Source of the DNA: Neophaeotheca triangularis
Lineage: Eukaryota
Direction: 5' to 3'
Length of the DNA: 64,000 nucleotides
NCBI GenBank assembly: GCA_054600435.1
Contig: BAAIJX010000008.1
Span: forward strand, 558,001 to 622,000
Part shown: piece after piece, positions 1,634-58,453 of the stretch
How the letters are laid out: each line of letters opens with the position of its first letter
How positions within the stretch are numbered: position 1 is the stretch's first letter
Made by a program: the position numbers and the translations under genes
The notes under the pieces: generated by a model
What the model saw: only the letters and a program-made list of their open reading frames with translations
The model's database searches: none
What the model was told of the DNA's origin: nothing

Positions 1634-2083
1634 CTAAAACTGCCTCCCTTCAATCGTCGTACATCCAGGTGCCATCTCCTCGAGCTTCGTCCGGAGCTCT
1701 GCGTTCCACTTCGCAGCCACGCGCTTCGCATTGTCCGACTCGACATTGGGTCCAATCTGCGTCACTTCCCCATCCATGAGAAACTCCCCGTGCGCCCCCT
1801 TGCCCACATTAGGCCCAATGGCCTGTGCCAGTAGACGACCGCCCGTTGCAGTTGTACGGCCAATAGTAGAATAAGCTAGCCCAAGGGCCAGCTGGCCAAC
1901 GTACGAATTCACATCCCTCATGATGGTGCTCCTGCAGAATCCGGGCGTCATAATGTTGATAATGACCTTTGACTTCTCATCGTCGACGGGGAAAGCCTCC
2001 GCCAGCCGCTTGCACGAGAACGTGAGGAGGATTTTGGTCATTGTGTAGCTGCATTCAGACAAATTAGCACCGCCCCAACGTGA

Positions 2084-2133
<50 letters not shown>

Positions 2134-2172
2134 TTTTATAAAAAAAAAAAAAATTTTTTTTTTTTTTTTTTT

Positions 2173-2218
<46 letters not shown>

Positions 2219-2239
2219 AAAAAAAAAAACCCCCCCAAA

Positions 2240-2286
<47 letters not shown>

Positions 2287-2973
2287 AACTCATGTTGTTT
2301 GAACTCACCGCTGCCACATCCACTCCCTTGACTCGGCCTCATCATTCAACTTCCCCCAAAAACTCCCCTCAGTCTCCAACTCTCTCAAATCAGCCACGAA
2401 CACAACATCACTACCCACGAAACTCAACCTCCCCGACAACCCAGTCTCGCGAGCACTCGCCTGCAATATCGGCAACAGCAAACAAGCCAGCAACATCGTA
2501 CCGGCCAAATTTGTAGCAACGGTAGCTTCCACGCCGTCGAAAGTGCGCCATTCCCGGCTAGCCATACCAGCATTCAGGCACGCGGCGTCGAGTCTGTCGA
2601 GTTTGCTCGCGCGCTGGGTAAAAGCCTTGATGGAATCGGGTGAAGCCATGTCGAGTTGCCATACTTCCACTGCGGTTTCGCCCGCGCCGTTGGCAACGAT
2701 GTCTTGTCGCGCGGTTTCGCCTTTGGTGGTGTCGCGGACGGCTAGGATGACTTTAGTGGCGCCTTGGTGGGCTATGTGGCGGGCGGCTTCGAGACCGAGA
2801 CCTAGGGTTTTCGTTTAGATGGGGAGTCGTTGTTGGGGATGCCGGGGACGTGCTGGCTTGCCTGTGTTTGAGCCCGTGACGATGACGGTCTGTTTGGAGA
2901 AGCTGTTGGGGAACTCTGGGATTGTTTTGAATTGGCTGCGGAAGAACTTGGCGAGGTAGGAGGGGATGGCCAT
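1634..2973 (-). CDS. Short-chain dehydrogenase/reductase (retinol dehydrogenase-like)
   Basis: TGSNTGLG Rossmann motif across GC-AG intron 2802-2861; LDMAS, NAG and catalytic YTMTK after intron 2049-2308; PGFCRS. Confidence 0.88.
2085..2284. repeat. About 200-bp tract of alternating poly(A)/poly(T) inside the SDR intron
   Basis: Directly visible A and T homopolymer runs plus a short C run. Confidence 0.95.
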
Positions 2974-3933
2974 TTTTGGTGCTGAGTTGATTTGAAGATT
3001 TGAAGAGGACACTAGGTTCTGCTTGCAATGTGTAAGTAGTCTTGAAGGTGTGGTGGTGGTTATTCGAAGCAAATTGAGCACGATTAGGGGTTAGATGTTA
3101 GTGTGTTTATCTACAGTATACATGTATATGTTCTGGGCCTCGGCGTGGCCGATGAGGAGATGTCGGCGTAGGATCGGGGCTAAAGTCTAACATGCAGAAG
3201 GCTAATCAGAGATAGTATAGTAATATATGTTCATTGTGCCGATCCGCCTAACTCATATAACTCTGCGGTCCAATATGGACATGTATCACGATAAGAAGCG
3301 TCGAGGTGAATATATATGGCTCGACCTTGAAGCTTCCTGTGAGTCTTCGTGTCACTGCGCTGGTGGGAAGCTTCTTCCAAGATCAAGCTCCACCACCTGC
3401 ATCCTCCTACCAGACTCCAGTATTGCAACTTCTGTCCTAGCTGCTCATCGCATGCTACTGATTCAGCAGGATCGCAAAAGAGATGCGGAGGAAGTGTGCC
3501 TTCGTGAGCGACGAACACCTCGTTAGTGACCCGCTCACCGCCAGCGACGTCCACAGATGCGTTACGTCCGTCCGAACAACGAACATTCCCTTGTACAAAT
3601 CACCCAGTTAGAATGGAATCATCTGAGTCCTGACCTCTACCCGAAAGGTTAGGTGACGACTTTAATCTACGGAAGGCAGTCTGCGTTGGCAGCCTTCGTG
3701 TATTAGGTCGGCCATTCAATGGATATCTATTTAGTTCCGTGATTGATCCCCTCTTACCTTACCTTCTCCCCCTTCTTACACGCCACTTTAACCCTGTCTA
3801 AGCATCACCGGAAGTACCTTGAAGCATAAGTCTCTGCAATCTACTCATCATCACACTGGCCAGGGGTCATGCGGAGTCATACGGTCTCTCAGCCAGTCCA
3901 CAACAGACACTCAGAGAGTCCACTCGAAGAAAG

Positions 3934-4798
3934 ATGTCGGGACCACGCCGTCTCGTTGTCACCGGTGCCACGGGAAAACAAGGAGGAGCCCTGATCTCGC
4001 ACTTCTCTCCCAACCTTCGCAGCCCTTCGAGATCTACGCTATAACCCGCAATAAGACCTCAAAGTCCGCCCAGACACTCTCCAGCAATGCAAACGTCCAC
4101 ATCATCGAAGGAAACTTCGACCGAGCGAAGGACATCTCCCACCAAGTTCCGAACCCCTGGGGTCTCTCCTCCATGACAACCCCTATGAACGCCAAAACCG
4201 AAGAGCGGCAGAGCGAAGCCATGACAGCGGCAGACATGAAAGCAGGAGTCCAATACATCGTCTTCACGATCAGGGGATCGTGGCGGTGACGACAAAAGCA
4301 TGCCAATCCAACCGGCGTGCCGCACTTCGCCAGAAAGTTAAACATTGAGCAAGACATTAAGTCGAGTACGATGCCACATGGAGGTTCCTCCGACCGGTCG
4401 CTTTCATGGAGAACATGAGCGACGACTTTGTTGGGAAAGGTTTCGTGAACATGTGGCGGCTAAGTGGACTCGATAGACCGCTGCAGCTCATCAGTTCCAA
4501 GAATATCGGCAAGGTTGCGGCCGACGCTTTCTTGCGTACCAACAGGCCGGAGCACCGCAATCAGGGTGTATCACTTGTCGGAGACTCGCTCTCATCCTAC
4601 GAGGCGGCGAAAGTGTTCCCAGAGGAGCTTGGCATGGAGTTACGGCGGTCTTACGACTTTGTCGGGCGGGTTCTTAGATGGGTTCTGCACGAGCCATTGG
4701 GTATCATGTTTGACTGGTTTACTACGGAGGGTTTTGGCGCCGATCTTGAGGCGATTGAGGCGAATAGGGAGATGTTTCCTTTTATGATGGATAAGTAG
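3934..4798 (+). pseudogene. NmrA-like NAD(P)-binding protein, frameshifted
   Basis: MSGPRRLVVTGATGKQGGALI, then frame changes are needed near 3998, 4270, 4300 and 4372 to join AITRN, DRGG, PTGVPHFA-K and FLRPVAFMEN segments; no splice signals explain the shifts. Confidence 0.8.
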
Positions 4799-55426: not shown

Positions 55427-57522
55427 CTAAGCTGCAGAGCCAACCTCGTTAGTACCCTTGTTGATAGACGCGACCATCTTTGCCACCTCTTCGCCAGCGG
55501 TGGTCTCCAACTTTTCCTTCTCGGATGAGTTGGCAAGCTGACTAGCATCACTCACAAGAGCGTACAGCTTGCGAGAGACGTCGCGGTTAATGTCAGTGTA
55601 CTGCTCTACGTTGATCTTGCTGGCGCGGTGGAAGGGTTTCAGAGCCGCTTTGACCATCTGCTGGATGTCCTGTTTGGCGTTCAAGGGCAGGTCGCGAGAT
55701 GGGGAAGAAGAATCGGCGCGTGGTCGCTTTGGGGGTGACTGCTGCTGAGCTTGGCGGCCGCGCTCCACTTTGTCCTTTTCGATGTTCTGATTGTAGGTCT
55801 TGGTGACGTCATAGGCATAGGCGGGCAAGACGCACGAAGAGAGTGGAGGCGAAGAAGGACCTTGGGGTGGGGGCGTGACTGACATGGCACGCGGGGTGGC
55901 CTGGCCAGAAGACATCGGGGAGCGCGCGCGAGAAGAGTTGGCCGGCGAGTACTGGCCATTAGCACCTTCGGAAGCGGCGGGCGACGAGGCGGCACCCGAC
56001 ACCGGGTTGCGCTCGACTTCCTGGAGTAAGGATGAGAGAAAGCTGGGTCCCTCCCCGTTGCGCTGGGCCGCCGTGGTGGACGATTCAGCCTGAGCATTAC
56101 CATCGGCGGTGCGACGAGGGCGCTGAAGACGAGGCCTCTTGAGCTGCGGCTGCTCGGCTGGCCGCGGCTCGGAGGGAGACGCAGGGGAGGCAGTGGCCTT
56201 TCTCTTGCGGGCAGATGACTCGTCAGTGCTGGTATTGAGAGTGCGGGCCTTGTCGAAGGCGTTCCAGGCACGTAACTCGTCCTGAGACTCTGGGTTAGGG
56301 ATGACGGTGGGCGCGGCTTGGCGAATGTGAGGGTTGGCGACGGCACGAAGGCGGGCAATGTTGCGACTTCCCTGGCGGCTGGCGACCTGCAGACGTCTCT
56401 GCCAGCGACGGGACTCCACGCGTTGCTCCTCGGTACGAGTCTCTACGGTATCGTCGTTATCGTACGGGAAATCCAGATCGAAGTCGAGGCGGCGAGCGAC
56501 GGTGTCCCAAACACGGTCCCACTCATTGTCGGTGCGGCGACCACGGCGCGTGGAGGTCGTGCCAGGGCGACGAGAGTGGCGGCCGCTGCGGGTGAGTCTA
56601 GGCAAGACACCATCATTCTCCAGGCTCTGAAGACAGTTGGCGCAGTAGTAGAATTCGGTCGCCTCGTCCATGCCCGAGCAGTACATGTGGACCCTAGTGT
56701 CGCAGCCTTCGCAGTGCATGGTTTCCTGATCCTCATCGATGTTACCGCATACGGCACAAGGCTCCCAAGTCTCTACATCAACCAACTCATCTTCATCAAC
56801 AATCATGGTGGGGTCAATCTCAGCCTGCTGTCGCTTGTCCTGGACGGCATAGGTATGCTCGACGGGACCTCCCTGGTACCGGCTGAGGTGAACCTCATTG
56901 AAGGTGGTGCGGCATGAGGGGCAACTATTGGCACGGTCGACCCACGGCTTGAGACAGACTTCGTGGAGGTAATGCTGGCAAGGTAGGAGGTAGGCGATGG
57001 TTTCGGGATCATCTTCGAGTTTGATGCTGGAACAGCCCGGGTTAGCTTGCTACTTGATTGAGTAAAGTCATCCACAGGCTGGAGGCCTCTCTAGGCCACC
57101 CGACACTGATGCAAAAAGAGCTGGGTGACAGCCTCACCTTCCAAGCTTATTCGGCGAATATTCTTCAAGCCGTCCAAGAGAGGAAGCGATACCCAGCGAG
57201 GGTAGCCGTGTGCGGATGGGCTGGAGAGGCCTCCAGAAGCTTTAGCGCATCGAGTACGGCAAGGCGTGGCGGGATGGGGATGGTATGATCGATCTCGCTC
57301 ATGGGTTCAGGTGAAGTACCTTTGCGTGTTATCGCCGTTCGACTTCAACTTGTCGGCGCCATCGATGGTGCCGACGGATGTAGACGCAGCTTCAATAGCG
57401 GCGGCGTCGGGAGCTCCCGGCGAGCGGTCAGTGTCGATGGAGGTGCGCAGCTCGCTGAGACACACGATGCACTGCTCCGCCTCAGCAGGCATGTCGGTGG
57501 CGGTGGTGGGCGTGTCTGTCAT
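55427..57522 (-). CDS. RING-H2 + PHD finger protein with C-terminal SRI-like domain (Asr1/PHRF1-like)
   Basis: CIVC in exon 1 and CQHYLHEVC...CPSC in exon 2, joined in frame by intron 57027-57319; PHD CAVC..CEGC..H..C..CANC; VKAALKPF...YTDINRDVSRKLY. Confidence 0.87.
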
Positions 57523-58453
57523 GCTTGATACTTCCCCTAACAGTCACAGCTGACAACGAGAGAAGTTGCGCACATGCGCAGCGGGTGGTGATTGTTGTTG
57601 AAGATCGCAGGAGAGAGGGTCTGGAAGTGTGGAAGAGTGAAAGGTGTAGGTCGGGTGTGGGGTTCAGCAGCTTGGGCGATTTATACGTGCATCAGCCAGT
57701 CACGCTAGCGCCTCGGACAGCTTAGCTAAGGCGCCTAGTCTCGATTCGGAAACGACGATGACGTGGAAAGGCAAAGGTCGTGACTGGACAGTCTTGGAAC
57801 AGAGGACAACGAAGTCAACTTGTTGCCTCGGGGAAAGTATTGCTTTGAGAAGTTGTCTTGCCGGGTCCCGCAATGAAGTCTGTACCGCCAACAGAGTGAA
57901 GCAGAGCGTTGGTGACGCGGCGGAGGCAGCCTCGTGCCATTCAACGGGTCGGCGTTCTTCACAAGCAGAATTTATCCCTCTACGGCAGCGGTAAACCTTG
58001 GTTCGAGTTGGCCGTGAGGACATTACAGGCCTTCAGTTTGTCCCACCGACCTGGATGAACAGTGGGTGTTGCTTTGTTGCTGCCGACCTTGCACTTGACT
58101 TGCCCATAACTATTTACAGCCTTACCTTCCTTGAGCGCGTGCGCACTTTCTTATAATTCTTCGAGTAGTGTGGCGGTTCGACGAGCGCAGAGGTGCTGGC
58201 TGCTCAGCCGTTTCGAGTACGCTTCGGGCAGATGCTACAAGTGCAGTCCAATTCTCATCACATCACACGGGCAGGTCGCAAACTCGGTTTCGAAATTGGA
58301 GGCTCGAAGGTTTTGAGGTTCGAAGGTTTGTCATTCGTATAGCATCCGTGCCGGCCCTACTGGATATTCGCTTGAAAAGCCCAGCCAGCAACGCAAAATG
58401 TTGCCCATTCGCAGTCCTCCGTGCACATCAATAACGCCAATGCACAATCCCCC

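Follow-up and report, generated by a model that had tools for sequence, protein, structure and literature searches.

What does a long RNA hairpin do in the only intron of a fungal gene, when it is folded around a second 5' splice site? The question is raised by a 64,000-nucleotide (nt) stretch of the genome of Neophaeotheca triangularis (assembly GCA_054600435.1, contig BAAIJX010000008.1, positions 558,001 to 622,000; hereafter the window, in whose numbering all coordinates are given). The minus strand of the window carries what is, by sequence comparison, a Dothideomycete gene encoding a protein with a PHD finger and a RING finger. A preliminary description had noted, within this gene, a hairpin spanning 57079-57236 and had read it as a rod that sequesters both splice sites of a cassette exon. 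To our knowledge, the nuclear introns of fungi very rarely contain conserved, structured cis-regulatory RNAs, the known cases being thiamine pyrophosphate (TPP) riboswitches and a handful of candidate motifs.

Here, we describe a comparative and thermodynamic analysis of this element. The hairpin belongs to an intronic RNA domain that is new and deeply conserved, though of a functional kind already known. The hidden second donor that the domain encloses probably decides between a working and a dead-end message, and on balance we favor the view that this single-copy conserved domain is a structure-gated 5' splice-site selector that sets the output of the gene.

Results

A long hairpin inside the intron

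The sole intron of the gene (57027..57319, minus strand; 293 nt; GUACUU...CTAAC...CAG) interrupts the RING finger and contains a 158-nt element closed by a terminal stem, P1. The 5' arm of P1 lies at 57213..57236 and its 3' arm at 57079..57102, both on the minus strand. A repeat search gave the arms as 24 nt each, 88% complementary and 110 nt apart, and a hand count on the sense strand yielded 21 Watson-Crick pairs, one G-U pair and two mismatches, in exact agreement with the positions and the 22 of 24 pairs originally described. The isolated P1 duplex is predicted at -41.3 kcal/mol. The whole element folds to -76.2 kcal/mol, compared with -53.6 +/- 4.1 kcal/mol for 200 dinucleotide shuffles (z -5.52), none of which folds as well; the antisense strand is comparable (-77.8 kcal/mol, z -5.95). 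An inverted-repeat scan (seed 10, arms of at least 16 nt, loop of at most 300 nt, low-complexity seeds skipped) found P1 as the sole inverted repeat in the 64-kb window. Its arm pattern, with at most three mismatches allowed, occurs there at the two arms only, and two or more matches were found in 0 of 100 shuffles.

The inner 110 nt folded alone do no better than shuffles (z -0.72 sense, -0.93 antisense), and therefore the terminal stem alone goes beyond chance in this single sequence. Of the roughly 160-nt rod that had been proposed, the 158-nt structure of the sense-strand pre-mRNA is real, but by energy alone the inner part forms no continuous rod here. The pairing of GCUGGGU with ACCCAGC within that rod also held only in part: complementary 7-mers exist, but they are absent from the minimum-free-energy fold of the sense strand and are not conserved. 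The proposed burial of the GUGAG donor fared better. The anti-donor strand UCGCUUCC (57182..57189, minus strand) pairs with the internal donor region in a predicted rod fold of -17.6 kcal/mol, and this UCGCUUCC / GGAAGGUGA pairing corresponds to a helix that is conserved in relatives (helix 2 below, 97% of cells paired). The internal donor region, S2, reads GGAAG|GUGA at 57134..57142 (minus strand; GU at 57137-57136) and is the strong donor of the unproductive isoform. The apical hairpin likewise proved to be part of a conserved unit, CGGC-UU-GAA-loop-UUC-GCCG (57152..57172, minus strand), whose loop varies in length among relatives and is sometimes extended as a helix.

Conservation and covariation in orthologous introns

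A protein-alignment scan of metagenome contigs yielded 54 orthologous loci (numbered with the prefix L), in 42 of which both flanking protein motifs were located. The motifs lie 353-518 nt apart in 31 of the 42, where a 198-301-nt intron occupies the same phase-2 site. They are separated by 153-285 nt in the other 11, seven of which are distant homologues (36-45% identity) without an intron at the site and four of which are transcript-like contigs. Judged by protein identity, intron-bearing loci represent Extremus antarcticus (100%), Aureobasidium pullulans (99.6%), and A. namibiae-like (91-94%), Friedmanniomyces endolithicus-like (92%), Cladosporium-like (70-77%) and Oleoguttula-like (71%) lineages. 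The intron set, counting the window, L012 and L027, comprises 23 distinct sequences.

Common to the introns are a 5' arm of the ACUGGAGGCCU type, a 3' arm of the CUGGAGGCCUCCAG type and a central block, ACUUCCAC-CUUGGACGGCUUGA-(variable loop)-UUCGCCG-AU-AGCUUGGAAG|GUGAGG. The RNAalifold consensus consists of P1 (17 pairs), helix 2, in which positions -6 to +3 of the internal donor pair with an upstream ACUUCC strand, and then CUUG/UAAG, CGGC/GCCG and an apical GAA/UUC, which is replaced by GAG/CUC in L004. In a MAFFT alignment of 14 distinct sequences, 94.7% of 486 cells are paired, and two-sided changes are present at 6 pairs versus 2.3 +/- 1.1 in shuffled controls (2 of 500 as high) and 1-4 with slid partners. 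A covariance model (CM) built from this alignment recovers L004 (66 bits) and L001 (47 bits), both of which lie outside its training set, and weakly matches two Aureobasidium introns (17 and 16 bits, E 0.04-0.06). When L001 and L004 are added, the CM-fitted alignment of 16 sequences is 93.6% paired and shows two-sided changes at 11 pairs versus 4.0 +/- 1.3 shuffled (0 of 500) and 2-5 slid, counts that come from a structure-fitted alignment and hence lean towards the structure. Nine of the 17 P1 pairs are compensatory in this alignment; as far as they can be tested, the arms are thus both conserved and covarying. Outside the main clade (L001, L004, L014 and L028) the domain is closed at the equivalent position by quite different arm sequences. 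Upstream and downstream segments are complementary at z < -3 in 13 of the 23 introns, and in 11 of the 23 none of 300 shuffles is as good.

The structure belongs, on comparative evidence, to the sense RNA, because G-U cells outnumber A-C cells (51 versus 7) and the CM scores the sense strand higher (105-167 bits versus 13-40 bits for antisense); pairing, too, stands at 94.7% sense versus 85.6% antisense. This asymmetry, with a sense score some 100 bits above the antisense one, speaks against a DNA-level element in which paired palindromic protein sites (CTGGAGGCCTCCAG-like) would serve as an intronic enhancer or a cruciform. As such an element would have it, most relatives have a 3' arm that forms a perfect 14-nt palindrome, and both window strands fold equally well, but complementarity is kept in lineages with quite different arms, and we give the idea hardly any credence.

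The unpaired nucleotides of the inner rod are invariant among the aligned introns, and this pattern of conservation suggests that something recognises them. Three CUUG repeats (UCUUGG, GCUUGA and GCUUGG) lie at 57146-57178 within the invariant inner-rod blocks. An invariant unpaired GA stands beside the CGGC/GCCG helix and, together with the CUUG repeats, could be a protein-recognition feature.

Two competing donors

All 23 introns have two donors. The internal one conforms to [AG][AU]G|GUGA[GC]G in 23 of 23. The upstream one, the productive donor S1 (57318..57319, minus strand; AAG|GUACUU in the window), reads AAG|GUA.. in 23 of 23 and has G at +5 in none. Because G at donor +5 is normally preferred in fungal splice sites, the internal donor (57137, AAG|GUGAGG) is by that rule closer to the consensus than the upstream donor. 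In the main clade the internal donor always lies 98-111 nt from the acceptor; in the window, the branch-site-like CTAAC lies at 57041..57045 (minus strand), its A 15 nt ahead of the acceptor AG (57028-57027). Use of the internal donor would bring an in-frame stop in the retained part of 21 of the 23 introns and a frameshift in the other 2. The stop in the window is a TGA (57307..57309, minus strand) four codons inside the intron, and it ends any message that retains the 5' part of the intron. In L027, L028, L031 and L034 the donor motif GAGGUCU has an additional downstream complement, AGACCUC. By sequence comparison, then, the donor is constant while its pairing partners change between lineages.

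Three RNA outcomes are seen in relatives. Gene-length contigs, such as L017, L018 and L020, which map to 1951-4194, 1925-4221 and 1936-4201 of a 52-kb genomic contig, were read as transcripts because their ends match the gene ends and their differences from genomic loci are exactly GT..AG segments. Three of the six transcript-like contigs (L013, L017 and L020) are fully spliced. The intron is kept whole in L018, which is 99.96% identical to the genomic L033, and in L001. Finally, in the Aureobasidium-like L035 the splice runs from the internal donor, GGAUG|GUGACG, to the usual acceptor, leaving the initial ~125 intron nt in place. The message from which everything is removed is, as had been supposed, the productive one, a conclusion borne out by the ortholog junction and by the contigs of relatives.

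These junctions bear directly on the cassette exon of the preliminary description, a poison exon at 57220-57138 with both of its splice sites locked in the hairpin. The window sequence alone invites such a reading, since a CAG (57223-57221) does lie inside the 5' arm, the GUGAG donor follows 83 nt downstream, both are in paired regions, and a CTAAA is found 21 nt upstream of the CAG. The acceptor is not conserved, however, being missing at the aligned position in L022, L025, L023, L012 and L036 (5 of 15 aligned). No contig has an upstream junction into the exon; the sole alternative junction links the internal donor with the normal acceptor while the upstream part stays in, which makes the event seen in a relative an alternative 5' splice site. 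The exon would also be 83 nt long and break the frame. We consider a cassette exon very improbable.

Two further uses of the inner sequence were considered. Recursive two-step splicing through AAG|GUGAGG was set aside: the site is located in a helix, and the AG is missing in L004, L010 and L014 (AUG|GU); no branch-site-like motif was noticed by eye upstream of AAG|GUGAGG in the window sequence. A protein-coding alternative exon was rejected on the spacing between blocks, which differs by 5, 6, 14, 15 or 18 nt and thus also by numbers not divisible by three, and on the occurrence of stops.

Two observations concern the products of retention. Many orthologous introns have, within their first 15-25 nt, an in-frame stop 4-7 codons past the upstream donor (RYFT, RYMT, RYRT or RYTT followed by the stop), and these early stops sit in a conserved CACCU-like stretch that might reflect selection for early termination of unspliced messages. 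In the A. namibiae-like L014, L015 and L032 the entire 198-nt intron is open and in frame, and retention would therefore add 66 residues to the first RING loop without a stop; the A. pullulans intron (206 nt) is not in frame.

Pairing of the donors and the role of P1

In the predicted folds, the 9-nt window around the internal donor is paired with a median of 0.78, versus 0.44 for the upstream donor. When P1 is blocked in silico, 20-30 kcal/mol are lost in each of the 8 introns tested. The same calculation speaks against P1 masking the internal donor, since that donor is still paired in the absence of P1. The models make it more likely that P1 serves distance and insulation rather than masking.

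A stem with that role would also be expected of a constitutive splicing aid, a "zipper" by which an over-long intron is shortened and a cryptic donor kept hidden for good, with nothing sensed or regulated. Of the 277 nt that separate donor and branch site, P1 takes out 158, it is worth ~20-30 kcal/mol in 8 of 8 introns, and 3 of the 6 transcript-like contigs are fully spliced. Complementary segments that aid splicing are known from yeast RPS17B (PMC2536676). Against this explanation, a merely cryptic donor should decay, and the motif is instead invariant in 23 of 23 introns, with partners that differ by lineage (upstream and ACUUCC-type in the main clade, with the added downstream AGACCUC in L027, L028, L031 and L034). 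The upstream donor without G at +5 is likewise kept in 23 of 23, the unpaired nucleotides of the inner rod are invariant, and both internal-donor and intron-retaining RNAs have been assembled in relatives. A purely constitutive zipper thus seems to us unlikely, though it deserves serious consideration, and we continue to favor a structure-gated choice between the two donors.

Copy number and searches for known families

The element is single-copy in the DNA searched. An nhmmer search of 276,764 nt (the 54 loci and the window) gave no significant match other than this intron, the CM found nothing besides this intron in 182,005 nt, and the arm pattern had 0 matches in the metagenome collection. 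The earlier caution that the segment might be a multicopy miniature inverted-repeat transposable element (MITE) finds no support as far as these searches reach. They also bear on the broader proposal that the hairpin is a relic of a mobile element, either a MITE or an introner-like element. Terminal inverted repeats are present, and introner-like elements are described as long, stably folded introns of Dothideomycetes such as Cladosporium fulvum and Mycosphaerella graminicola (PMC3609843); this intron is longer than regular introns and stably structured (293 nt; element z -5.5). No target-site duplication was found beside the arms, however, where the flanks read ..AAAGCTT before the element and CCTGTGG.. 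after it. There is one copy in the 64 kb and none more in the related DNA, and the orthologous sites of relatives carry the element (31 of 42) rather than being empty. Its core is conserved at the same site across distant genera, in Cladosporium-, Teratosphaeriaceae- and Aureobasidium-like loci, whereas introner-like elements are portrayed in that paper as gained recently and quick to degenerate (PMC3609843). A mobile origin is therefore highly improbable in our estimation, although an ancient one of the introner kind is conceivable.

A search of Rfam, named as a check in the preliminary description, returned no family at E <= 1 for the element in the window region or for six orthologous loci; for the intron alone, at E <= 10, it returned only chance rows of long noncoding and small RNAs (10-12 bits). 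A single small nucleolar RNA (snoRNA) row was returned, sR38 (17.7 bits, E 0.4); it maps to 56990-57046 on the other strand and does not reach the element, and relatives gave none. The TPP aptamer model had no match at E <= 1, nor was it among the intron-alone rows up to E 10. Full-text literature searches found no published description of the element; term searches of the main text of Li & Breaker 2017 (PMC5640933) gave no PHD, zinc finger, ubiquitin or Dothideomycetes, and "RING" only inside an author's name.

The lack of an Rfam match for the window region, the six loci or the intron alone counts against the intron being host to an independent stable RNA (snoRNA-like, a small-RNA precursor or another noncoding RNA) whose conservation would serve that RNA and not splicing. 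The strong conservation of unpaired rod nucleotides is what one would expect of a hosted RNA, and a stem of 20-24 bp could be a processing signal. The most conserved element is nevertheless a splice donor, and it is used as such in L035, so that we judge a hosted RNA quite unlikely.

The gene and its annotation

Exon 1 (57320..57522, minus strand; from the open reading frame list, the sequence and the ortholog junction) begins with the ATG at 57522-57520, contributes the initial Cys-x2-Cys of the RING finger and has a phase-2 end (...CAA AG). The remainder of the RING-H2 finger is encoded by exon 2 (55430..57026, minus strand), together with the PHD finger and an extended C-terminal region. 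Residue 9 of exon 2 is where the match to the Pfam RING profile sets in, at position 15 of 44. After splicing, the junction Q|SIKLEDD aligns with ..KSIQTDDE.. of annotated orthologues, and removal of the whole intron therefore gives a functional message. The protein relatives are Dothideomycetes, the best match having 73% identity and named species at most 54%. RING and PHD are the only domains detected in the gene product, whose C-terminal part has no match in Pfam or PDB.

Two of the five named gene models inspected (P0072 and P0020 among the named orthologues) mishandle the intron. In the public Extremus antarcticus model, exon 1 and the RING finger are missing, although L004-L006, which are 100% identical, do carry the exon upstream. 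In that of Cladosporium fusiforme, the greater part of the intron has been translated, and the conserved element with it. Elsewhere in the window, ~200 nt at 2085-2285 are nearly all homopolymer runs (A ~45, T8, A14, T ~60, C7, A ~50), which is either an odd low-complexity tract or a long-read assembly artefact.

Discussion

The locus has the features of a structure-gated alternative 5' splice site: two donors, a covarying structure over one of them, and both products, the products being those of relatives only. We infer that the folding state of the domain decides donor choice and that this choice is regulated. In the folded state the internal donor would be held in a helix with its complementary upstream strand, and P1 would loop out the 158-nt domain, so that the upstream donor would lie ~120 nt (83 + 37) from the branch site instead of 277 nt. 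Splicing from the upstream donor would then remove the intron entirely and give functional mRNA. If the domain were opened or bound by a factor, the internal donor would be exposed at a typical intron distance from the acceptor and would win. Its use, or retention of the intron, would lead to an in-frame stop and a dead-end message.

Several observations weigh against this model. The inner helices are nearly invariant and show little covariation, with double changes at 1 of 12 pairs of helix 2 and 0 of 4 of helix 3, and the stronger of the two covariation counts is, as noted, the one fitted to the structure. Arm complementarity is not significant in L001, L004, L010, L027, L034 and L036, and whole-intron folds reach z <= -2 in only 10 of 21 introns (the window intron has z -2.24). 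The donors are not cleanly separated in the predictions: with 30 nt of exon included, the GU of the upstream donor is also paired (median 0.94), and when P1 is blocked pairing of the internal donor stays at 0.70-0.99 in 8 of 8 introns. The gene-length contigs are taken as transcripts from their shape, a status stated by no record, and the internal-donor junction is seen in one contig only, L035, which belongs to the lineage with the weakest helix 2. The RNA pieces from the window organism itself (X5, 56551-56808; X6, 56658-56906; X4, 57414-57667) are short exon stretches with no joints, none of them over the intron. Counted in favor of the model, though only as a weak hint of constraint, is a second strain of the organism (run X3): its intron differs by three substitutions, including 57065 and 57068, and by the loss of 5 nt (57050-57054) just upstream of the branch site, all of which fall outside the 158 nt and leave the hairpin identical.

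What might toggle the structure is a separate matter. The invariant inner rod, GGACGGCUUGA ... UUCGCC ... GCUUGGAAGGUGAGG, with its unpaired purines and three CUUG repeats, could conceivably be a sensor, either a small-molecule aptamer or a protein site that shifts donor choice, although we regard this as a doubtful proposition. If it were true and the ligand a small molecule, the domain would add, beside TPP, a second class to the riboswitch-like splicing switches of eukaryotes; if a protein were bound, it might be linked to the pathway of the gene product itself. Either would mean control of a chromatin/ubiquitin-type regulator over a large part of the Dothideomycetes.

Long, single-copy and deeply conserved, the element belongs to one gene, and because it is organised around a competing donor it offers a clear hypothesis that can be tested in tractable relatives such as Aureobasidium pullulans and Cladosporium. 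On the practical side, gene predictors mishandle this intron.

Among known systems, the autoregulated intron of yeast RPL30 has its 5' splice site in a conserved structure with a purine-rich internal loop, whose occupancy sets splicing output, and the RPL30 product binds its own transcript. The product of the present gene, in contrast, has no recognised RNA-binding domain; self-regulation is pure conjecture here, because only RING and PHD domains were detected.

Introner-like elements resemble the intron in being long, stably structured introns of the same fungal class. Introner-like elements, however, number in the hundreds, are nearly identical to one another, sit in unrelated genes, have canonical donors and decay fast (PMC3609843), whereas the present element is single-copy in the DNA searched and confined to one orthologous site; its donor has no G at +5, and its core is conserved. 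The zipper pairings of yeast RPS17B/RP51B are similar in that complementary stretches lying between 5' splice site and branch point pair with each other and cut the effective distance (PMC2536676). Here, however, the stem encloses a conserved competing donor and a sequence-invariant rod, and it has been kept across several Dothideomycete genera.

Fungal TPP riboswitches control alternative 5' splice sites, and one account describes Neurospora NMT1 as "Type I" and a predicted "Type III" in internal introns of 200-400 nt (PMC5882874). According to the same account, these systems have two donors with a stop or an upstream open reading frame between them and one acceptor, and an intronic structure hides the proximal donor, so that the distal donor gives a working mRNA and release of the proximal donor a dead end (PMC5882874). 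The present intron (198-301 nt, two donors, a stop between) is like "Type III" in architecture only: it has no TPP aptamer model match, its host gene has no thiamine link, and its domain encloses the proximal donor rather than lying downstream of that donor. The closest working counterpart of this domain is nevertheless the fungal TPP riboswitch acting on alternative donors, whose aptamer it does not share.

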